64,000 bases of DNA from Escherichia phage JM17 (PP400779), one strand, 5' to 3'; counted from the stretch's first letter, positions 6,077 through 42,645 are shown. A program made the numbers and translations. The notes: generated from the sequence alone by a model not told the origin.

Positions 6077-6502
6077 ATGGCTTTTAAAGGTTTTGAAGTT
6101 GGTAAGAAATATCGTATTATCAAAGGACAGGAAGATAATTTCTTGAGAATTCTTAATACGACTGGTAAACGTCTTAATACTAATCTGCATACTACTTTAT
6201 TGTCCAAAGATTTTATTGTGGAAGAGATGATTGGTTACGGTGTTTCGGTTATTGCTGTAGAAGCCGTAGGCGATTATGGCCGAACTATTCATAGTATGCA
6301 AGGTGATATTCTGCTTTATGGTGCAGAATTTAAATTCTTTGAAGAAGTTCCGGAACCAGATACAGCTGTCGATTTCAAAAAAGGCTCTATAGAATTTGTT
6401 GATGGTTCGGTGATCGTATCAGGCGATGTGGTCATTACAGTTAAAAGTGAACAAGGGCGTTTGGCTGCAATCGATACACTTCAGAAAATTAAATTTAAAT
6501 AA
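6077..6502 (+). CDS. hypothetical protein (141 aa)
   Basis: ORF followed directly by a terminator hairpin. Confidence 0.55.
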   Translation: MAFKGFEVGKKYRIIKGQEDNFLRILNTTGKRLNTNLHTTLLSKDFIVEEMIGYGVSVIAVEAVGDYGRTIHSMQGDILLYGAEFKFFEEVPEPDTAVDFKKGSIEFVDGSVIVSGDVVITVKSEQGRLAAIDTLQKIKFK

Positions 6503-6519
6503 GGGCTTCGGCCCTTTTT
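6503..6519 (+). terminator. intrinsic terminator (GGGC-UUCG-GCCC hairpin plus T5)
   Basis: gggcttcggccc followed by ttttt. Confidence 0.55.
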
Positions 6520-6543
6520 GCTTTAGATTTCGGATGATAGAAT
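6517..6543 (+). promoter_or_regulatory. candidate MotA-dependent middle promoter for gene 39
   Basis: MotA-box-like tttgcttta, 12-bp gap, then tagaat, about 25 bp upstream of the gene 39 start. Confidence 0.4.
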
Positions 6544-6565
6544 ACCTTCATAACGAGGAGACAAC

Positions 6566-8383
6566 ATGATTAAAAATGAAATTAAGGTATTGACAGATGT
6601 AGAACATATTAAGAAACGTAGTGGTATGTATATTGGTTCTTCGGCTAAAGAAGCACATGAGCGTTTTTTGTTTGGTAAATATCAACAAGTTGAATATGTT
6701 CCTGGTCTGGTTAAATTAATCGATGAGATTATTGACAACTCGGTTGATGAAGCTATTCGTACATCATTTAAGTTTGCAAATAAAATTGATGTGCAAATTA
6801 AAAATAATCAAGTTTCGGTGGAAGATAACGGACGCGGTATTCCTCAAGGTTTAGTTACTGACCAAACAGGTGAACAAATTCCTGGTCCTGTAGCGGCCTG
6901 GACTATTCCAAAGGCTGGTGGTAACTTTGGTGATGATTCTGAACGCAAGACTGGTGGTATGAACGGCGTCGGGAGTAGTTTAACTAATATCTTCTCTACG
7001 TTGTTTACAGGCATCACGTCAGATGGCGAAAACGAAATCACTGTTAACTGTTCAAACGGAATGGAAAACAAATCATGGTCTTCTAAGAAATCTAAAGGTA
7101 AAGGCACTAAAGTAATCTTCACTCCTGATTTCTCTTCATTTGAAGAGCATAATTTATCTCAAATTTATTTAGATATTACTTTAGACCGACTTCAAACATT
7201 GGCAGTCGTTTATCCTGATATCAAGTTCACATTTAATGGTAAAAAGGTTGATGGTAATTTTAAACGATTTGCTAAACAATTTGGTGAAGATAACATCATT
7301 CAAGAAAATGATAAAGTCTCTATAGCATTCACAACATCACCAGATGGCTTCCGTCATTTAACTTATGTGAATAACATCCATACTAAAAATGGTGGTCATC
7401 ATGTTGAATGCGTAATGGATGATATCTGCGAACATCTTTTGCCGGGTATTAAAAAGAAATATAAGGGTATTGAAGTCACTAAAGCTCGTGTTAAAGAATG
7501 CCTCACAATGTTGATGTTTATTAGAGACATGAGCAACATGCGTTTTGATTCTCAGACTAAAGAACGTTTAACGTCAACGTATGGTGATATTCGTAATCAT
7601 ATCCAATTAGATGCTAAGAAAATTGCTCAGGCACTTCTTAAAAACGAAGCCTTGATTATGCCTATTGTTGAAGCAGCATTAGCTCGTAAATTGGCAGCAG
7701 AAAAGGCTGCAGAAACTAAAGCAGCTAAAAAGGCAACTAAAGCTAAGGTTCATAAGCATATTAAAGCTAACCAATGTGGTAAAGATGCAGATACGACATT
7801 GTTTTTAACAGAAGGTGATTCGGCAATTGGTTATCTCATTGATGTTCGTGACCGTGAACTACACGGCGGATTCCCATTACGTGGTAAGGTGATGAATAGC
7901 TGGGGTATGTCATATGCTGATATGATGAAGAACAAAGAGCTCTTTGATATCTGTGCTATCACAGGTCTTATTCTTGGTGAAAAGGCAGAGAATACGAACT
8001 ATCGTAATATTGCAATTATGACCGATGCCGATCACGACGGTCTTGGAAGTATTTATCCTGCTTTGCTTGCTTTCTTTAGTAATTGGCCCGAATTGTTTGA
8101 ACAAGGACGTATTCGCTTTGTTAAAACACCTGTAATTATTGCACAAATTGGCAAAACTCAAAAATGGTTTTATACTGTAGCTGAGTATGAAGAAGTTAAA
8201 GATACACTGCCTAAGCATAGTATTCGATACATCAAGGGATTGGGCTCACTTCAGCGGGATGAATATAAAGAAATGATTCAAAACCCTGTGTACGACGTAG
8301 TTAAACTTCCTGAAAATTGGAAAGAACTCTTTGAAATGTTGTTGGGTGATGATTCAGAACTTCGTAAAGAATGGATGTCCTAA
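6566..8383 (+). CDS. 39: DNA topoisomerase II large subunit, unsplit gene 39 form (605 aa)
   Basis: N-terminus MIKNEIKVLTDVEHIKKRSGMYIGS and DNGRGIP ATPase motif match T4 gp39; the single ORF runs through the region that T4 encodes separately as gene 60. Confidence 0.92.
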   Translation: MIKNEIKVLTDVEHIKKRSGMYIGSSAKEAHERFLFGKYQQVEYVPGLVKLIDEIIDNSVDEAIRTSFKFANKIDVQIKNNQVSVEDNGRGIPQGLVTDQTGEQIPGPVAAWTIPKAGGNFGDDSERKTGGMNGVGSSLTNIFSTLFTGITSDGENEITVNCSNGMENKSWSSKKSKGKGTKVIFTPDFSSFEEHNLSQIYLDITLDRLQTLAVVYPDIKFTFNGKKVDGNFKRFAKQFGEDNIIQENDKVSIAFTTSPDGFRHLTYVNNIHTKNGGHHVECVMDDICEHLLPGIKKKYKGIEVTKARVKECLTMLMFIRDMSNMRFDSQTKERLTSTYGDIRNHIQLDAKKIAQALLKNEALIMPIVEAALARKLAAEKAAETKAAKKATKAKVHKHIKANQCGKDADTTLFLTEGDSAIGYLIDVRDRELHGGFPLRGKVMNSWGMSYADMMKNKELFDICAITGLILGEKAENTNYRNIAIMTDADHDGLGSIYPALLAFFSNWPELFEQGRIRFVKTPVIIAQIGKTQKWFYTVAEYEEVKDTLPKHSIRYIKGLGSLQRDEYKEMIQNPVYDVVKLPENWKELFEMLLGDDSELRKEWMS

Positions 8384-33913: not shown

Positions 33914-34501
33914 ATGCTTAAATTAGTATTCGCATGTGCTCCGTCTAAAACAGTCGATGATAAACTGGAATATGCTTTTGGATTAGGTGATGGACTACCA
34001 TGGAAGCATATCAAACAAGATATGAGTAACTTTGTTGCTCGCACTAAAAACACTGTAATGGTTATGGGTGCTAAGACATTTGCATCATTACCTCGTCTAC
34101 TCCCAGATCGTACTCATGTGGTTGTCACTGATATGGCCAGAAAACTGCCTAGGACTAAAACTGATGAACTTGCACGGTTCTATATCACACAAGCAGAATT
34201 TATTACCTTGGTAATGGGTGGTGAAATTAACCTGTTTAGCCCTGCAACTGACGTACCGTTTAAACTTTCTACTGAACATATTGATGTATCTGTTATTGGT
34301 GGTCCTGCTCTACTTAAACAAGCACTGCCTTATGCCGATGAAATCGTGATGACTAAAATCATTAAGAAATGTCGTGTTAATTCCGATGTTCAACTTGATA
34401 AAGATTTCGTCCAAGATATTATGCTTCAACGTTCTATGGTAGAATCTCATTACTACAGAATCGATGAACTCACCGAAATTACTGAGAGCGTATATAAATG
34501 A
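33914..34501 (+). CDS. frd: dihydrofolate reductase
   Basis: 195 aa; N-terminus MLKLVFACAPSKTVDDKLEYAFGLGDGLPW and VSVIGGPALL match T4 Frd. Confidence 0.92.
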   Translation: MLKLVFACAPSKTVDDKLEYAFGLGDGLPWKHIKQDMSNFVARTKNTVMVMGAKTFASLPRLLPDRTHVVVTDMARKLPRTKTDELARFYITQAEFITLVMGGEINLFSPATDVPFKLSTEHIDVSVIGGPALLKQALPYADEIVMTKIIKKCRVNSDVQLDKDFVQDIMLQRSMVESHYYRIDELTEITESVYK

Positions 34502-35046
34502 AACAATACCAATACCTGATTAAAGATATCTTAGAAAATGGCTACGAGACAGACGACCGTACAGGTACCGGCACTATTGCCCTGTTCGGAACTAAATTAC
34601 GTTGGGACCTTACTAAAGGATTTCCTGCAGTAACAACTAAGAAATTAGCATGGAAAGCTTGTATTGCCGAGTTACTGTGGTTCATGTCTGGTTCTACCAA
34701 TGTTAATGATTTGCGTATTCGTACTCATGGTAGTCTTATTCAAGGTAAAACTATTTGGGACGACAACTATGAAAATCAGGCAAAAGACCTTGGATATCAT
34801 AGCGGCGAACTTGGTCCTATTTATGGTAAGCAATGGCGTGATTTTGGTGGTGTAGACCAATTAGTTGAAACAATCGACCGTATTAAAAAATTACCAACTG
34901 ATCGTCGTCAAATTGTTTCTGCCTGGAATCCAGCTGAAATAAATCAAATGGCTCTTCCTCCTTGTCATATGTTCTATCAGTTCAATGTGCGTAATGGTCA
35001 TCTTGATTTACAATGGTATCAACGCAGTGTAGATGTTTTCTTGGGT
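34498..35046 (+). CDS. td: thymidylate synthase, exon 1
   Basis: Matches T4 TS residues 1-183, ending ...QRSVDVFLG; the in-frame stop directly after GGT is the first intron triplet. Confidence 0.93.
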
Positions 35047-36063
35047 TAATTTAGGCCTGGGTATAAGGTGACTTATACTTGTAATCTATCTAAACGGGGA
35101 ACCTCTCTAGTAGACAATCCCGTGCTAAATTGTAGGACTACCCTTTAATAAATACTTCTATATTTTAAAGAGGTGTTTATGAAAAGCGGAATTTATCAGA
35201 TTAAAAACACTTTAAATGGTAAAGTGTATGTTGGAAGTGCTAAAGATTTTGAGAAAAGATGGAAGAGACATTTTAAAGACCTTGAAAATGGTGTTCACTC
35301 TTCTATAAAATTTCAAAGGTCTTTTAATAAACATGGTAATGTTTTTGAATGCTCTATACTGGAAGAAATTCCATATGAGAAAGATTTGATTATTGAACGA
35401 GAAAATTTTTGGATTAACGAGTTAAATTCTAAAATTAATGGATATAATATTGCTGATGCGTCCTTTGGCGACACATTTTCAAATCACCCATTAAAGGAAG
35501 AAATTGCTAAGAAACGAGCTGAAACGGTTAAAGCTAAGATGCTTAAGCTTGGTCCTGATGGTCGAAAAGCCGTTTATGGTAAACCCGGAAGTGAAAACGG
35601 ACGATGGAATCCAGAAAACCACAAGTTTTGTAAATGTGGTGTTCGCATACCAACTTCAGCCAACACTTGTAGAAAGTGTCGAAAACGTTCAGGTGAAAAT
35701 AATCCATTCTTTAATCATAAACATTCAGAAAAAACTAAAACTAAACTATCAGAAAAGATGAAAGGTAAAAAGCCATCTAACATCAAAAAGATTTCATGTG
35801 ATGGTATTATTTTTGAATGTGCAGCTGATGCGGCCAGACATTTTGAAATTTCATCTGGATTAGTTACTTACCGTGTAAAATCTGATAAGTGGAATTGGTT
35901 CTACATAAATGCCTAACGACTATCCCTTTAGGGAGTAGGGTCAAGTGACTCGAAACGATAGACAACTTGCTTTAACAAGTTGGAGATATAGTCTGCTCTG
36001 CATGGTGACATGCAGCTGGATATAATTCCGGGATAAGATTAACGACCTTATCTGAACATAATG
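35047..36063 (+). mobile_element. td group I self-splicing intron (1017 bp)
   Basis: 5' end taattt...ggcctgggtataaggtgacttatac and 3' end ...ctgaacataatg match the T4 td intron; the TS frame resumes at 36064. Confidence 0.9.
35179..35916 (+). CDS. intron-encoded GIY-YIG homing endonuclease I-TevI
   Basis: 245 aa from the ATG at 35179; MKSGIYQIKNTLNGKVYVGSAKDFEKRWKRHF matches T4 I-TevI. Confidence 0.93.
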   Translation: MKSGIYQIKNTLNGKVYVGSAKDFEKRWKRHFKDLENGVHSSIKFQRSFNKHGNVFECSILEEIPYEKDLIIERENFWINELNSKINGYNIADASFGDTFSNHPLKEEIAKKRAETVKAKMLKLGPDGRKAVYGKPGSENGRWNPENHKFCKCGVRIPTSANTCRKCRKRSGENNPFFNHKHSEKTKTKLSEKMKGKKPSNIKKISCDGIIFECAADAARHFEISSGLVTYRVKSDKWNWFYINA

Positions 36064-36375
36064 CTACCGTTCAACATTGCCTCGTACGCTGCCTTGACGC
36101 ATATTGTAGCGAAGATGTGTAACCTTATCCCAGGTGATTTAGTGTTCTCAGGTGGCAATACGCATATCTACAGCAATCATGTAGAACAATGCAAAGAAGT
36201 TCTTCGTCGTGAACCTAAAGAGTTATGTTCTCTTGAAATTAATTGGCCTAGTAATTTTGAGAATTGGCCTACAAAAATCCAAATGGACTGGGTTACTGGA
36301 ACAATGACACATTCTGATTTCGTTCTTAAAAATTACGAATCACATCCAGCTATCAAAGCTAAAATGGCGGTATAA
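36064..36375 (+). CDS. td: thymidylate synthase, exon 2
   Basis: Begins LPFNIASYA...; exon 1 plus exon 2 gives 286 aa, as in T4 TS. Confidence 0.93.
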   Translation, partial: LPFNIASYAALTHIVAKMCNLIPGDLVFSGGNTHIYSNHVEQCKEVLRREPKELCSLEINWPSNFENWPTKIQMDWVTGTMTHSDFVLKNYESHPAIKAKMAV

Positions 36376-36376
36376 A

Positions 36377-36631
36377 ATGATTTTACGTTTTATTAATTCA
36401 TATGGCACCACAATTTTTGAAATGAAAAATCCTACCGAACTGGATATCCCTTCACCGAATAGTGAAATCACAGTTAAAGGTGAACGATTCATTTGTTATT
36501 CACATGAACGAATTTATGAATATCGTGAATTTTGTGGTGGTTACGGTATGGAAAAAGAACCATTGGTTTATTTCGATATTACGGTCTTGACACCTAAAGA
36601 ATACGAAGAAATTATTGCTGAGGATAATTAA
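36377..36631 (+). CDS. hypothetical protein (84 aa)
   Basis: ORF starting 2 nt after the td stop. Confidence 0.45.
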   Translation: MILRFINSYGTTIFEMKNPTELDIPSPNSEITVKGERFICYSHERIYEYREFCGGYGMEKEPLVYFDITVLTPKEYEEIIAEDN

Positions 36632-36655
36632 CGCTTCAGTTTAAAAGTGTATAAT
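36630..36655 (+). promoter_or_regulatory. candidate MotA-dependent middle promoter for nrdA
   Basis: MotA-box-like aacgcttca, 11-bp gap, then tataat. Confidence 0.35.
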
Positions 36656-36718
36656 AAATTAACGGGATAAATACTATCCCGTTTGGAGTAATGTCTATCA
36701 ACCTATACTGAGGAATAT

Positions 36719-38143
36719 ATGCAAGTAACTAAGAGCAGTGGTGTATCCCAAAATTTTGATGCACAGAAAATTATTCAAGTCTTAACTTGGCAATGTGAAG
36801 GAACACAAATTGATCCATATGAATTGTACGAAGAAATTAAGACCCATCTTGTCGACGGGATGAGCACCAAAGATATCCAGAAGATTTGTATTAAAGTTGC
36901 AGCTAACTCGATTTCTGTCGAAGAACCTGATTATCAGTATGTCGCCGCCAAAGGGCTAATGTTTGCACTTCGTAAAGATGTATATGGGCAGTTTGAACCG
37001 CCTGCTTTTATCGACCATATTTCTTACTGTGTTAATGAAGGCAAATATGACCCTGAGCTGTTGTCTCAATATTCAGCAGAAGAAATCATTTATCTCGATT
37101 CACAGATTAAACATGAACGAGACTTTGACCTGACTTACGCTGGTGCTATGCAGCTTAAAGAAAAATATCTAGTTAAAGATAAAACAACTGGGAAGATTTA
37201 TGAAACTCCACAGTTTGCTATCATGGCTATTGGCATGGCCTTACATCAAGACGAAACTCATGACCGTTTGAAACATATTATTCGTTTTTATGACGCCGTT
37301 TCTACTCATCAAGTTTCATTGCCTACTCCAATTATGGCAGGTGCTCGTACTCCAACTCGCCAGTTCTCTAGTTGTGTAGTTATTGAAGCCGGTGATTCGT
37401 TAAAATCTATTAACAAAACTTCAGCATCAATTATTGAATATATTTCTAAACGAGCTGGTATTGGTATCAACGTTGGTATGCTTCGTGCAGAAGGTTCTAA
37501 GATCGGTATGGGTGAAGTTCGACATACGGGTGTTATTCCATTCTGGAAACATTTCCAAACTGCAGTAAAATCTTGTTCTCAAGGTGGTATTCGTGGTGGT
37601 GCTGCTACAGCGTATTATCCGATGTGGCACTTAGAAGTAGAGAACCTATTAGTTCTGAAAAATAACAAAGGCGTGGATGAAAACCGTATTCGACATATGG
37701 ACTACGGAATTCAGATTAATGACCTTATGATGGAACGCCTTGGTAAAAATGATTATATTACTTTATTTAGCCCTCACGAAATGTCAGGCGAACTATACTA
37801 CTCGTTCTTTGAAGATCAAGATAAATTCCGTGAGCTTTATGAGAAAGCTGAAAAAGACCCAACAATCAGAAAGAAAAGAATCAAAGCACTAGAACTCTTT
37901 GAATTGTTCATGACTGAACGTTCTGGCACCGCTCGAATTTATCCGCAATTCGTTGATAACACGAACAACTACACTCCATTTATTCGTGAAAAAGCTCCAA
38001 TTCGTCAGAGTAACTTATGTTGTGAAATCGCTATTCCAACTAATGATGTGAATGGGCAACAAACCCGTTTAATCAAAATTAAGAAGTCGGATGTAGCTAA
38101 GTTTTATGAAGCTAATCCTGGCGGTATAATTCAAAGCAAATAA
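36719..38143 (+). CDS. nrdA: ribonucleotide reductase alpha subunit, N-terminal fragment (NrdA-a)
   Basis: 474 aa; class Ia NrdA through the active-site loop SNLCCEIAIPTNDVN, then a 28-aa non-homologous tail and a stop. Confidence 0.9.
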   Translation: MQVTKSSGVSQNFDAQKIIQVLTWQCEGTQIDPYELYEEIKTHLVDGMSTKDIQKICIKVAANSISVEEPDYQYVAAKGLMFALRKDVYGQFEPPAFIDHISYCVNEGKYDPELLSQYSAEEIIYLDSQIKHERDFDLTYAGAMQLKEKYLVKDKTTGKIYETPQFAIMAIGMALHQDETHDRLKHIIRFYDAVSTHQVSLPTPIMAGARTPTRQFSSCVVIEAGDSLKSINKTSASIIEYISKRAGIGINVGMLRAEGSKIGMGEVRHTGVIPFWKHFQTAVKSCSQGGIRGGAATAYYPMWHLEVENLLVLKNNKGVDENRIRHMDYGIQINDLMMERLGKNDYITLFSPHEMSGELYYSFFEDQDKFRELYEKAEKDPTIRKKRIKALELFELFMTERSGTARIYPQFVDNTNNYTPFIREKAPIRQSNLCCEIAIPTNDVNGQQTRLIKIKKSDVAKFYEANPGGIIQSK

Positions 38144-38188
38144 AGTACACAGACCGTTAATAAATAATCCATAACAAGAGGAAAAGTT

Positions 38189-38899
38189 ATGGATTATTCT
38201 AAAATTTACAATAACCTTATTTCTAAAGCTAAGAACAGAAAATTAGATTGCTATACCGAATCACACCATATTATACCTCTGTGTATTGGTGGTTCTGATA
38301 CAAAGGAAAACCTGGTAGATTTGACACCAGAAGAGCATTACATAGCTCATCAATTATTAGTAAAGATATATCCAGATAATCATAAATTGATATTTGCCGC
38401 TAATATGATGTGTGTTTATTCTGAAGATAATATTGAACGAAAGAACACCAATAAACGCCATGGGTGGCTTAGAAGAAAATTGGCTATTTCTGTATCTGAA
38501 AATAATAAAGGCAAACCAGCTTGGAACAAAGGTATTCCTATGTCTCCAGAAGTTAAATCTCGACTTCAAACATCTTGGGTGTTTACATTTCCGGATGGTC
38601 ATGAGGAAATTCATCGAGGTCTTAACGAATTTTGTAAAGAGCATAATTTAAATCCATCTGCAATGTCAGCCGTTTGTAAAGGTAAACGGGCGCATCACAA
38701 AGGATTTAAGTGTAAGAAATTGGATAAGATTTCGGAGCTTGATAATTTAGTTTTCGTCAGTAAACCTCATCCAAAGGGATTAAAACCCCATAACTTAATT
38801 GCTGTAAAAATAAACGGTATAGAATATCAATCAATACAACGAGCATCTAAAGCTTTAGGAATTACTAGAAAAAAGGTAGAAGAATTAAATGAATATTGA
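38189..38899 (+). CDS. HNH homing endonuclease (Mob-like) inserted within nrdA
   Basis: 236 aa; HNH motif ESHHIIPLCIGGSDTKENLVDLTPEEH; own ribosome-binding site; its end overlaps the start of the NrdA-b ORF. Confidence 0.85.
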   Translation: MDYSKIYNNLISKAKNRKLDCYTESHHIIPLCIGGSDTKENLVDLTPEEHYIAHQLLVKIYPDNHKLIFAANMMCVYSEDNIERKNTNKRHGWLRRKLAISVSENNKGKPAWNKGIPMSPEVKSRLQTSWVFTFPDGHEEIHRGLNEFCKEHNLNPSAMSAVCKGKRAHHKGFKCKKLDKISELDNLVFVSKPHPKGLKPHNLIAVKINGIEYQSIQRASKALGITRKKVEELNEY

Positions 38900-39878
38900 T
38901 TATGAATTTGTAGATGAATTTTACGAAGATGATGAGTATACTACAATAAAAGTTATTGAAAACAAGGGAGAAGTGGGGCTTTGTACTCTCTCTGCTTTTG
39001 TATTAGATAAATTTGATTGGCAAGACCAAGATAAAATTAATGAACTTGCTGAAGTACAAGTACGTGCACTTGATAACCTGTTAGACTATCAAGATTATCC
39101 GGTTCCAGAAGCTTTAAAAGCCAAAAAGCGTCGTAATCTTGGTGTTGGTGTTACGAACTATGCTGCATGGTTAGCTTCTAACTTCGCTTCATATGAAGAC
39201 GCTAACGATTTGACTCATGAATTGTTTGAGAGATTGCAATATGGCCTTATCAAAGCTTCAATCAAACTCGCCAAAGAAAAAGGATGTTGCGAGTATTATT
39301 CAGACACTAAATGGTCTAGAGGCGAATTACCTATCGACTGGTACAATAAAAAGATTGACCAAATCGCAGCCCCGAACTACGTATGTGATTGGGAAGAACT
39401 TCGAGCTGAACTCAAAGAACATGGAATTCGTAACTCAACGTTGTCTGCACTCATGCCTTGTGAGTCAAGCAGTCAAGTATCAAACTCTACAAACGGGATT
39501 GAACCGCCGCGTGGTCCAGTGAGTATTAAAGAATCTAAAGAAGGCAACTTCCGTCAGGTTGTTCCTAATATAGAACATAACATGGGTCTTTACGACTACG
39601 CGTGGAAACTTGCTAAGAAAGGTAATAAACCTTATTTGACCCAAGTTGCTATCATGTTGAAATGGGTGTGCCAATCTGCTTCTGCTAATACTTACTATGA
39701 CCCTGCAGTATTTGAGAAAGGTAAAGTGCCAATGTCAGTAATGCTTGACGATCTGCTTTACTTCTGGTACTTTGGCGGAAAAAACCTCTACTATCATAAC
39801 ACTCGTGATGGGTCAGGTACAGATGACTATGAATTAGAAACACCTAAAGCTGAAGATTGTTCTGCTTGTAAGCTTTAA
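38889..39878 (+). CDS. nrdA: ribonucleotide reductase alpha subunit, C-terminal fragment (NrdA-b)
   Basis: 329 aa; about 27-aa novel N-terminus, then GEVGLCTLSAFVLDKF... continuing NrdA homology to a C-terminal CxxC tail. Confidence 0.9.
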   Translation: MNIDYEFVDEFYEDDEYTTIKVIENKGEVGLCTLSAFVLDKFDWQDQDKINELAEVQVRALDNLLDYQDYPVPEALKAKKRRNLGVGVTNYAAWLASNFASYEDANDLTHELFERLQYGLIKASIKLAKEKGCCEYYSDTKWSRGELPIDWYNKKIDQIAAPNYVCDWEELRAELKEHGIRNSTLSALMPCESSSQVSNSTNGIEPPRGPVSIKESKEGNFRQVVPNIEHNMGLYDYAWKLAKKGNKPYLTQVAIMLKWVCQSASANTYYDPAVFEKGKVPMSVMLDDLLYFWYFGGKNLYYHNTRDGSGTDDYELETPKAEDCSACKL

Positions 39879-39933
39879 GACTTTTGATTATAATTTACTC
39901 ATGGATGAGTTAATAACTAAGTGAGAAAATATA

Positions 39934-40609
39934 ATGAGTACAGTTTTTAACACACAACAAGTCGATGTTTTGAATGAACCAATGTTCTTTGGTTCTGGTC
40001 TTGGCCTAGCACGTTATGATATTCAGCGACATAAAGTTTTTGAAGAACTTATTGAAAAGCAATTGTCGTTTTTCTGGCGCCCAGAAGAGGTAAACTTGAT
40101 GTTGGACTCTGCGCAGTTCAATAAGCTTCCTCAGTTCCAACAGGACATCTTTACAAACAATCTTAAGTATCAATCATTATTAGATTCTATCCAAGGCAGG
40201 GCCCCATCTGCGGTACTTATGGCACTGATTTCCGACCCTTCATTAGATACGTGGGTTGCAACATGGACATTCAGTGAAACTATTCACTCTCGTTCGTACA
40301 CTCATATTATGCGAAATCTTTATACCGATCCATCCAAAGTATTTGATGAGATTGTATTAGACGAAGCAATCATGAAACGAGCTGAATCAATAGGTAAATA
40401 TTACGATGATGTTCTGGTTAAAACTCGTTATTGGGAAAACGCTAAAGAATTTGTAGAACAAGCTAAAGAATCTCCTGATGCCGACCTTCGTTTAAACCGA
40501 GCTATTAAACAAGAGACCGAAGCTAAACGAGACCTAATGAAATCTCTTTATCTTTGTTTGCATGTCATCAATGCATTGGAAGCTATTCGTTTTTATGTAT
40601 CTTTTGCGT
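39934..40609 (+). CDS. nrdB: ribonucleotide reductase beta subunit, exon 1
   Basis: NrdB N-terminal homology to ...LEAIRFYVSFA; exon boundary inferred (exon ends at a U, followed by a stop in the intron). Confidence 0.88.
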
Positions 40610-41705
40610 AAAATGCGCCTTTAAACGGTAACGTTTATCGAAAACTCCTTTAATTGCTGGAAAGTCCTTTATAGGAAAACTAGCAGCCAAGGTTTTGCTT
40701 GCACCTTTAATTAGTATATTATAAAATAAATATGATTATACTTTTAAGAGGATGCACAATTGAATTATAGAAAAATTTGGATAGATGCTAACGGACCTAT
40801 ACCTAAAGATTCTGATGGAAGAACATACGAAATCCATCATAAAGACGGTAACCGTGAAAATAATGATTTAGATAATTTGATGTGCCTTTCTATACAGGAA
40901 CATTATGATATACATTTAGCTCAAAAAGATTACCAGGCTTGTCATGCTATAAAGCTTAGAATGAAATATTCTCCTGAAGAAATTTCTGAATTAGCTTCTA
41001 AAGCCGCAAAATCTAGAGAAATCCAGATTTTTAATATCCCTGAAGTACGAGCTAAAAATATTGCCTCTATTAAATCTAAGATAGAAAATGGTACATTTCA
41101 TCTTTTAGACGGTGAAATACAGCGTAAATCTAATTTAAATAGAGTTGCATTAGGTATACATAATTTTCAACAAGCTGAGCATATTGCAAAAGTTAAAGAA
41201 CGCAATATTGCAGCTATAAAAGAAGGTACTCATGTATTTTGCGGTGGTAAAATGCAGTCAGAAACTCAATCAAAACGGGTAAATGACGGTTCACATCATT
41301 TCTTGTCAGAAGACCATAAGAAAAGAACATCAGCAAAAACATTAGAAATGGTTAAGAACGGAACCCATCCTGCACAAAAAGAAATCACATGTGATTTCTG
41401 CGGTCACATTGGTAAAGGTCCTGGATTTTATCTAAAACATAATGACAGATGTAAATTAAATCCAAATAGAATTCAATTGAATTGTCCATATTGTGATAAG
41501 AAAGATTTATCACCATCAACATATAAACGATGGCACGGCGACAATTGCAAAGCAAGGTTCAACGACTAGTCTTCGGACGTAGGGTCAAGCGACTCGAAAT
41601 GGGGAGAATCCCTCTGGGATTGTGATATAGTCTGGTCTGCATAGTAATATGTAGCAGTTCATAAGAGAACGGGTTGAGAATTAGCGAGCTCAATCGAACA
41701 TAACG
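40610..41705 (+). mobile_element. nrdB group I intron (about 1.1 kb; boundaries inferred)
   Basis: NrdB homology is interrupted for about 1.1 kb; 3' end ...cgaacataacg parallels the td intron 3' end; contains the I-TevIII ORF. Confidence 0.8.
40760..41569 (+). CDS. intron-encoded homing endonuclease I-TevIII, full length
   Basis: 269 aa; N-terminal HNH-type motif (YEIHHKDGNRENNDLDNL) plus C-terminal Cys-rich zinc-finger region; the track start at 40760 is a TTG codon. Confidence 0.8.
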   Translation: MNYRKIWIDANGPIPKDSDGRTYEIHHKDGNRENNDLDNLMCLSIQEHYDIHLAQKDYQACHAIKLRMKYSPEEISELASKAAKSREIQIFNIPEVRAKNIASIKSKIENGTFHLLDGEIQRKSNLNRVALGIHNFQQAEHIAKVKERNIAAIKEGTHVFCGGKMQSETQSKRVNDGSHHFLSEDHKKRTSAKTLEMVKNGTHPAQKEITCDFCGHIGKGPGFYLKHNDRCKLNPNRIQLNCPYCDKKDLSPSTYKRWHGDNCKARFND

Positions 41706-42208
41706 GTACCTTTAACTTCCATAAGAACATGGAAATTATGGAAGGTAATGCAAAGATTATGAAGTTCATTGCTCGTGACGAACAACTCCATCTCAAGGGT
41801 ACTCAGTACATTATCCGTCAACTTCAATCTGGTACTGATGGCGATGAGTGGGTTCAAATTGCTAAAGAATGTGAACAAGAAGCAGTTGACATTTTTATGG
41901 AAGTAAATCGTCAAGAGAAGGAATGGGCTGCACACCTCTTTAAAGACGGTACATGTCCAGGTATCAATACGCAGAGTATGTGTGCTTTTGTTGATTACTT
42001 GACTGTGTCTCGTATGAAACAGTGTGGTTTGCCATGCCCAATCACTGATGCTCCGACCAAGCATCCGTATCCTTGGATTCGTGAATATCTTAACTCTGAT
42101 TTAGTTCAAGCAGCTCCTCAGGAAGTTGAAATCAGTTCTTATCTTGTTGCACAAATTGATAATGATGTGGACCAAAATGTAATCAATTCATACAAAAAAT
42201 ATTTCTAA
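41706..42208 (+). CDS. nrdB: ribonucleotide reductase beta subunit, exon 2
   Basis: Resumes ...MEGNAKIMKFIARDEQLHLKGTQ... to the NrdB C-terminus; exon 1 plus exon 2 gives about 392 aa. Confidence 0.85.
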
Positions 42209-42234: not shown

Positions 42235-42645
42235 ATGAAAGATATTGCCGCCGAATATTCCTTTATTAAATATATAGAATTGGAGCTATTAGAAGATGCA
42301 ACAATTAAAACAGTTGATGTCCCTAATAAGAAAAATGTCATATACGCTATTGCTATAGATGACGAACTTGTGTATATTGGTAAAACCAAGAATTTAAAGA
42401 AACGCATTAACTATTATCGAACAGCCATAAATCGAAAAGACCAGACTTCAGATTCAAGAAAATCACTTATGATTTTGGATGCCTTAATGCAAGGCAAAAA
42501 GGTTGAATTCTGGGCCCGCCAATGTTTTGACCTTTCAGTCACCAACGAACTTGGTTCAATGACCATCGCAACAATGGACCTTGAAGAACCACTTTTTATC
42601 AAAAAGTTCAACCCGCCTTGGAATATCCAACATAAGAAAAAGTAG
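42235..42645 (+). CDS. denA: endonuclease II (DenA)
   Basis: 136 aa; VIYAIAIDDELVYIGKTKNLKKRINYYRTAINRKD and C-terminal FNPPWNIQHKKK match T4 DenA. Confidence 0.88.
   Translation: MKDIAAEYSFIKYIELELLEDATIKTVDVPNKKNVIYAIAIDDELVYIGKTKNLKKRINYYRTAINRKDQTSDSRKSLMILDALMQGKKVEFWARQCFDLSVTNELGSMTIATMDLEEPLFIKKFNPPWNIQHKKK

Follow-up and report, generated by a model that had tools for sequence, protein, structure and literature searches.

Three homing endonuclease genes in the td-nrdA-nrdB cluster of Escherichia phage JM17: two group I introns and an nrdA gene split by an Aeh1-type cassette

Introduction

In a stretch of 64,000 nucleotides (nt) from Escherichia phage JM17 (PP400779), referred to here as the window, the gene nrdA, encoding the class Ia ribonucleotide reductase (RNR) large subunit, is divided into two separate open reading frames (ORFs) with a MobE-family HNH homing endonuclease gene between them, while its neighbors td and nrdB each contain a group I intron with an endonuclease ORF of its own. 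Judged from its sequence, the insertion in nrdA is a mobE cassette of the type described from Aeromonas phage Aeh1, and neither an intron nor an intein. We regard it as highly probable that the region as a whole is explained by two self-splicing introns, in td and nrdB, together with an nrdA product made as two polypeptides which reassemble, the division being caused by a mobile MobE cassette. The cluster would thus have been invaded by three selfish endonuclease elements, and the host genes would have been kept working in two different ways.

The three endonuclease genes around td, nrdA and nrdB that had been predicted earlier from the sequence of the window are all present and intact within 34498-42208. 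They differ in how familiar they are. Both introns, together with I-TevI and I-TevIII, are textbook T-even biology, fully known, to which nothing new is added here. The split nrdA is the only uncommon part of the region, rare but already described from Aeh1, and is therefore treated first. All features discussed lie on the + strand, and positions are counted from the first nucleotide of the window.

Anatomy of the split nrdA gene

The original prediction placed an HNH gene inside nrdA and left the nature of the insertion unstated. An ORF of 236 amino acids (aa) is indeed found between two nrdA ORFs. The first of these, nrdA-a (36719-38143), encodes the N-terminal three-fifths of the large subunit in 474 aa, which match the Pfam domains ATP-cone and Ribonuc_red_lgN and positions 1-221 of the Ribonuc_red_lgC model; the second, nrdA-b (38889-39878), encodes the C-terminal two-fifths in 329 aa, matching positions 219-523 of the same model. 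The halves lie in different frames with a stop codon between them, and the unsplit NrdA of T4 (754 aa) aligns to both. In terms of the large subunit of Escherichia coli (R1), NrdA-a corresponds to residues 7-454, the active-site motif NLCxE included, and residues 24-323 of NrdA-b correspond to R1 454-751, the two halves meeting at R1 residue 454 with no residue lost or doubled. The break falls in the loop between NLCxE (E. coli C439/E441) and the redox cysteine C462 of LCTLSAF.

Each half carries an extension that is absent from unsplit NrdA. NrdA-a ends in a basic C-terminal tail (residues 447-474, encoded at 38057-38140; isoelectric point (pI) 10.0) with the sequence QQTRLIKIKKSDVAKFYEANPGGIIQSK, and NrdA-b begins with an acidic N-terminal tail (residues 1-27, 38889-38969; pI 4.05), MNIDYEFVDEFYEDDEYTTIKVIENKG, neither of which occurs in the NrdA of T4 or of phage a20. 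Between the halves, the endonuclease gene (38189-38899) follows nrdA-a after a spacer of 45 nt and overlaps nrdA-b by 11 nt. Its product shares 44% identity with Aeh1 MobE over the full length and 45% with T4 MobE over the N-terminal 130 aa, and it matches Pfam I-HmuI_NUMOD-like with 38 bits and PHROG 655, annotated as homing endonuclease, at E=1e-58.

A probable split enzyme of the Aeh1 type

The closest known system is the "genes-in-pieces" arrangement nrdA-a/mobE/nrdA-b of Aeh1 (Friedrich et al., 2007; Crona et al., 2011, PMC3045599). In that phage the independently translated halves form an a/b heterodimer and give an active enzyme (Crona et al., 2011, PMC3045599). Assembly of (a/b)2 and of the holoenzyme requires the tails, activity dropping 2000-fold in their absence, and their basic and acidic charge pattern was noted by Crona et al. 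(PMC3045599).

The same NrdA loop is broken in both phages and the gene order is the same. The products measure 474, 236 and 329 aa in the window and 473, 237 and 323 aa in Aeh1, the spacer 45 and 46 nt, and the overlap 11 and 14 nt, respectively. The C-terminal tails align, RLIKIKKSDVAKF with MLFKVKKSEVDKF, as do the N-terminal tails (EFYEDDEYTTI vs EVYEDEEYTTV, with the common motif YEDxEYTT), and the pI values of 10.0 and 4.05 compare with 9.9 and 4.05 in Aeh1. In both, a hairpin covers the translation start of the endonuclease gene. The systems differ in their host, which here is a Tequatrovirus/Mosigvirus-type phage of E. coli and not a Cinqassovirus, and in their location, since nrdA of the window belongs to the T4-like td-nrdA-nrdB cluster whereas the Aeh1 nrd operon is found elsewhere. 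The hairpins are unlike in sequence and in what they bury, and the tails are only partly conserved. Moreover, biochemistry exists for the Aeh1 version, whereas the coliphage version is known from sequence alone.

Because the anatomy, the MobE-like protein and the tails are homologous to those of Aeh1, the same mechanism is assigned here. The large subunit would be made as two polypeptides, NrdA-a and NrdA-b, without splicing, the cassette lengthening the former by a basic tail (about 28 aa) and the latter by an acidic one (about 27 aa). By homology with Aeh1, the tails would allow the halves to come together as an active (a/b)2 large subunit capable of binding NrdB, and we infer that the split enzyme reassembles through them as it does in Aeh1.

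Several points weigh against this assignment. All support for it in this phage is computational, Aeh1 is a distant relative, and the sequences of the tails agree with those of Aeh1 only in part. Tails and hairpin are near-invariant among the coliphage copies and consequently offer no covariation or synonymous bias that could reveal selection. In addition, the MobE-like protein scores 18.2 bits against Pfam HNH, below the cut-off of 21.4, and the family assignment relies on MobE homology and PHROG.

Two other known systems are related to the insertion. Free-standing mobE genes are located between nrdA and nrdB in T4 and RB3 (Wilson & Edgell, 2009, PMC2790892), and their products share the N-terminal HNH domain with the MobE-like protein (45-49% over about 100-130 aa). 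In the window, by contrast, the endonuclease gene lies inside nrdA, the C-terminal DNA-binding part of its product is unrelated to that of RB3 MobE, and the spacer between nrdA and nrdB amounts to 55 nt without a mobE gene. Phage IME537 contains both the intragenic cassette (L009, 4650-5360) and a 243-aa ORF, annotated as hypothetical, at the intergenic mobE position (6339-7070); if this ORF is a mobE, intragenic and intergenic mobE are not alternatives. A further parallel is the split topoisomerase of T4 (mobA, genes 60 and 39), in which an HNH mob gene likewise splits the gene of an essential enzyme and C- and N-terminal extensions are kept (bioRxiv 10.1101/2022.08.31.505936). The host gene is a different one, however, and no translational bypass element is seen in nrdA of the window.

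Alternative explanations of the insertion

It is conceivable that the insertion simply inactivated nrdA, and that the ORFs are decaying fragments in a phage which leans on the host reductase or on an anaerobic one. The nrd genes of T4 are generally known not to be strictly essential in the laboratory, and the function of the split nrdA in JM17 is deduced solely from its sequence. We nevertheless consider this explanation very improbable, given that both halves are full length, possess all catalytic residues, are free of frameshifts and are 97.8% and 97.7% identical to the intact gene of a20. The arrangement is moreover intact in five phages from two nrdA backgrounds, the protein sequence of the tails is conserved between coliphage and Aeromonas phage copies, and the split enzyme of Aeh1 is fully active (PMC3045599).

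Even less credence can be given to a third self-splicing group I intron with an HNH ORF, the spliced mRNA of which would encode one polypeptide. In favor of this reading, the insert extends beyond the endonuclease ORF by about 130 nt on its 5' side and about 80 nt on its 3' side, introns are frequent in phage RNR genes, and HNH endonucleases are in many cases intron-encoded (PMC3653736). These roughly 210 nt are, however, too short for a group I ribozyme core; they consist of reading frames continuous with nrdA-a and nrdA-b, the translations of which are conserved with Aeh1 despite diverged DNA, and 38040-38980 yields no Rfam match even at E<=10.

A degenerate or split intein, with tails that are remnants ligating the halves by protein trans-splicing, is the least plausible reading of all: a degenerate intein was raised by Crona et al. 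as a possible origin of the tails (PMC3045599) and metagenomes are known to contain nrdA genes broken up by split inteins, but the tails are just about 28 and 27 aa long, the C-tail starts without Cys or Ser, no His-Asn precedes the conserved part of NrdA-b, neither half contains a Pfam Hint or intein domain, and a stop codon and a frame change separate the halves.

Probable mobility and distribution of the cassette

The Aeh1-type cassette can be delimited by comparison with uninterrupted alleles. For this purpose, nrdA was aligned among the window, PTE-Eco05, F2 and a20, which represent one nrdA background, and fPS-2, IME537 and T4, which represent another that is about 78% identical; identities of cassette and flanks are sliding identities taken from these alignments. 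The candidate mobile cassette extends over 38058-38995 and comprises the codons of the C-tail, the 45-nt spacer, the MobE-like gene, the codons of the N-tail and about 26 recoded bases of nrdA. The insertion point is identical in both backgrounds and the boundaries are the same in five phages. The cassette takes the place of 7-8 nt, CTGATGC, present in uninterrupted nrdA alleles, and the empty site of a20 or T4 contains AATGATGTGAATGGTCCTGATGCTGAAATTGGTTTATGCAC.

A sharp discontinuity of identity is directly visible at the cassette borders. Compared with fPS-2, the insert of 912 nt is 99.1% identical, the parts coding for the tails and the spacer even 100%, whereas the nrdA flanks are only 77.5% and 77.9% identical. 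The first 26 nt past the insert, which encode conserved NrdA residues, match the other cassettes at 26 of 26 positions and a20, the closest uninterrupted relative, at only 17 of 26; on these grounds they appear to be transferred together with it, being either a short tract of co-conversion or a target half-site that was recoded.

These patterns suggest that the whole cassette, tails included, moves between phages by homing, so that tails, endonuclease and the short recoded stretch of nrdA would be transferred as one unit. We are inclined, though with little more than even confidence, towards a further step, namely that the MobE-like gene, the two tail segments and the recoded piece of nrdA constitute a self-contained mobile unit which carries its own "antidote", homes among enterobacterial T4-like phages and goes back to one origin in common with the cassette of Aeh1. 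The insertion at the same codon, the homologous tails, the near-identity across backgrounds that are 22% apart and the occurrence in about 3% of T4-like records argue that tails and endonuclease move together as part of a mobile element. Aeh1, the only case studied biochemically, was portrayed as having no counterpart among about 1200 nrdA sequences, and its split as the outcome of a transposition-like event that happened once (PMC3045599, PMC2988022). If the cassette is a self-contained unit, reassembly through tails would be a heritable and transferable alternative to introns and inteins, and not a one-off accident of Aeh1.

Of about 1095 phage records in GenBank that have a matching nrdA, 34 (~3%) contain the cassette. 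They belong to phages of Escherichia, Yersinia, Shigella and Salmonella, and their annotation goes no further than a homing endonuclease flanked by two RNR fragments. We found no paper that describes the coliphage cassette, and coliphages with a split nrdA are mentioned only in passing in the literature. Searching a collection of 5.8 billion proteins with the 60-aa head of NrdA-b returned a single 73-aa fragment, the word index of the collection requiring longer queries, and an exhaustive HMMER search of 50%-identity representatives gave three matches, none of them informative; the split NrdA-b proteins are probably represented by other members of their 50%-identity clusters. The coliphage version provides a system based on E. 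coli, which is far easier to handle than the Aeromonas phage Aeh1, and it would serve two questions: how short charged tails reassemble a fragmented active site, and how a free-standing endonuclease spreads into an essential gene without killing it.

A second type of cassette, found in IME537 and partly in F2, differs chiefly in the middle of the endonuclease gene, where identity falls to about 70%. This middle part (38531-38760 in the window, the I-HmuI NUMOD-like region) exists in two forms that are about 70-77% identical, with near-identical ends on either side, and F2 is a mosaic, which suggests that cassette variants recombine. The two forms possibly differ in DNA-binding specificity.

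In phage a20, the nrdA of which is unsplit, another gene annotated as a homing endonuclease (L008, 2806-3441; 211 aa) lies just upstream of nrdA and overlaps its start, a position at which the window has only a spacer of 87 nt (36632-36718). Around nrdA, near-identical phages thus harbor different endonucleases at different sites.

Probable control of the MobE-like gene

A 13-bp RNA hairpin (38163-38198) is predicted at the start of the MobE-like gene, burying the AUG, with the Shine-Dalgarno sequence AAGAGG in its loop. The helix is perfect, with a folding energy of -13.8 kcal/mol (z = -4.1; none of 200 shuffled sequences folded as well), and its 5' arm is overlapped by the late-promoter-like motif AATAAATA at 38159-38166. 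At the same place, Aeh1 has a hairpin of different sequence (-20.9 kcal/mol, z = -5.5) in which the Shine-Dalgarno sequence is buried instead, and which reportedly keeps the ribosome-binding site of mobE sequestered (PMC2988022). In the model proposed for I-TevI and for mobE of Aeh1, early read-through transcripts fold and block translation, whereas late transcripts, which begin within the hairpin, are translated (PMC2988022).

The MobE-like gene is probably subject to the same combination of promoter and hairpin control. Early in infection, the hairpin over the start codon would hold back synthesis of the MobE-like protein, which late in infection would be released by transcription from the promoter inside the 5' arm. 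Two observations weigh against this proposal: the late-promoter-like motifs AATAAATA are one base off the consensus TATAAATA, and such short A+T-rich motifs are not statistically unusual in the genome, where 7.1 exact copies of the consensus would be expected and 5 are present.

The td intron and I-TevI

The td gene for thymidylate synthase (TS) spans 34498-36375 and consists of exon 1 (34498-35046), which ends in U (...CUUGGGU), a group I intron of 1017 nt (35047-36063), which ends in G (...AACAUAAUG), and exon 2 (36064-36375). The splice junctions implied by the original prediction hold for td and for nrdB alike, as the joined exons give full-length, colinear TS and NrdB. In td they encode a TS of 286 aa that is colinear with residues 1-286 of the crystallized T4 enzyme (1TIS; E=3e-165), the alignment running from end to end through the junction VDVFLG/LPFNIA. 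At the RNA level, the junctions read GGGU/UAAU...AAUG/CUAC, with the 5' exon ending in U and the intron in G.

The intron contains the gene for the GIY-YIG endonuclease I-TevI (35179-35916, 245 aa), as had been foreseen. Its product matches four Pfam domains above their cut-offs (GIY-YIG PF01541, I-TevI_ZnF PF22635, NUMOD3 PF07460 and I-TevI_DNA-bd PF20987) and is identical to T4 I-TevI at 219 of 245 residues (89%). The gene is taken to begin at the ATG, and the ORF list puts the start two codons earlier, at GTG 35173. Upstream of the gene, a AATAAATA motif (35147-35154) and a hairpin covering the ribosome-binding site and the AUG are found; both a promoter motif and a hairpin are described before I-TevI of T4 (PMC2988022).

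The T4 td intron agrees with that of the window in insertion site, splice junctions and ORF position, in the late-promoter-like motif and hairpin that precede the ORF, and nearly in length (1017 nt in the window, 1016 nt in T4), whereas the allele of the window has diverged to 90.5% identity in DNA, in addition to the differences in I-TevI. The intron is matched largely complete in 198 GenBank phage records, with at least 99% identity in eighteen.

Against the Rfam model Intron_gpI, the td intron of the window reaches 16.5 bits, the cut-off being 50 and the model being interrupted by the ORF of 738 nt. The score rises to 66.9 bits for the ORF-less copy of phage PYps55T, to which the non-ORF halves of the window intron are 97.5% identical. 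In the first helix of the intron (35047-35075), two substitutions distinguish the window from T4 and PYps55T, TTGAGG to TTTAGG and CCTGAG to CCTGGG. By our reading, the latter would turn a U-A pair with the 5' exon into U-G, and pairing would be kept.

The nrdB intron and I-TevIII

The nrdB gene (39934-42208) is organized likewise. Exon 1 (39934-40609) ends in U and is followed by a group I intron of 1096 nt (40610-41705), which ends in G, and by exon 2 (41706-42208). Joined, the exons encode an NrdB of 392 aa that is colinear with the small subunit (R2) of E. coli across the junction FYVSFAC/TFNF, and the RNA junctions are GCGU/AAAA...AACG/GUAC. The intron shares 99.3% identity with that of RB3 and 97.2% with that of T4. 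Its full-length form occurs in 84 GenBank phage records, whereas a version with a deletion of about 0.5 kb is found in T4 and about 40 others.

A full-length I-TevIII ORF of 269 aa with a TTG start had been announced for this intron, and it is present (40760-41569). It is identical to I-TevIII of RB3 at 268 of 269 residues, the TTG start being annotated in RB3 as well (GenBank KM606994), and it matches Pfam HNH_3 and PHROG 12324 (E=2e-193). A sequence search of the PDB returned no relative of I-TevIII with a solved structure. In translation, and with the numbering of PMC1865063, the protein retains H26, H27, N39 and H48 and both CX2CX12-13HX3C zinc fingers. Counted from the TTG, the positions at which Robbins et al. 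introduced mutations (H26, H27, N39, H48, C211, C214, C242 and C245; PMC1865063) have exactly these numbers, and the TTG is therefore the accepted start of I-TevIII. The single difference from RB3 concerns residue 23, Tyr in the window and Asp in RB3, Tyr being the majority allele among the five phages compared.

The T4 copy of I-TevIII, which had been called defective, is truncated and annotated accordingly. The RB3 allele, on the other hand, has been known since 1991 and has been studied biochemically (Eddy & Gold, 1991; Robbins et al., 2007, PMC1865063); the window shares its TTG start, its H-N-H residues and its two zinc fingers. The intact I-TevIII of the window is the RB3 allele and is no surprise, as the full-length intron is present in so many records.

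Apart from residue 23, the window differs from RB3 upstream of the ORF. At 40715-40732, a 5-nt insertion (TATAT) and a T-to-A substitution set it apart from RB3, PTE-Eco05, a20 and fPS-2 and convert the perfect late-promoter consensus TATAAATA of those four phages into AATAAATA. This may have an effect on the expression of I-TevIII or may be a sequencing difference.

The 3' half of the nrdB intron scores 33.9 bits against Intron_gpI (E=7.5e-6; cut-off 50), the endonuclease ORF again interrupting the model. The ORF-less copy in phage PD112 reaches 68.6 bits, and the ribozyme parts of the window intron are 97.8% identical to it.

Common features of the two introns

The 3' ends of the two introns are alike, as had been observed from the sequence: td ends in ...CTGAACATAATG followed by exon CTACC, and nrdB in ...TCGAACATAACG followed by exon GTACC. 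The near-identical ends can be summarized as GAACATAA, then T or C, then G, with the exon continuing as CTACC or GTACC. Beyond this, the two introns can be aligned along the length of their 3' ribozyme halves, as expected for related T4 introns.

A scan of the whole window with Rfam at gathering thresholds gave no match because the endonuclease ORFs sit inside the ribozymes. The matched parts of the ORF-less introns of PYps55T (td) and PD112 (nrdB) amount to 320 and 304 nt, or 32% and 29% of the window introns. These two phages thus represent natural ORF-less versions of the introns among sequenced T4-like phages and are handy controls for the loss of the endonuclease.

Since both introns are near-identical to those of T4 and RB3, for which splicing is established, they are presumably spliced autocatalytically, which would restore the td and nrdB mRNAs, each endonuclease ORF being accommodated in a peripheral loop of the ribozyme. 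I-TevI and I-TevIII would be expected to cut intron-less alleles in co-infecting phages, and the ensuing repair would copy the intron into them, the process known as homing.

Gene order and relatives of the region

The genes of the region form the nucleotide-precursor cluster (frd-td-nrdA-nrdB-denA) of a coliphage of the T4 type. At 33.9-42.8 kb of the window, the order frd-td-nrdA-nrdB-denA-rnlA is that of T4, although identity to T4 is only about 78-83%. Escherichia phage vB_EcoM_PTE-Eco05 (PQ306573) is colinear across all 9 kb with 97.6% identity. Phage a20, filed in GenBank under Mosigvirus, is the closest annotated relative, with 97.5% identity. PTE-Eco05 and Yersinia phage fPS-2 share the arrangement of three endonucleases, and the layout is therefore not a chance pattern.

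No fourth homing endonuclease was detected in the window by tblastn with the three endonucleases and DenA or by Pfam searches of ten further ORFs. One candidate is denA (42235-42645, 136 aa), which has a Pfam GIY-YIG match and which a quick scan could miscount as a fourth homing endonuclease gene. By position and size it corresponds to endonuclease II of T4, where its product degrades host DNA, and it is not a homing endonuclease gene.

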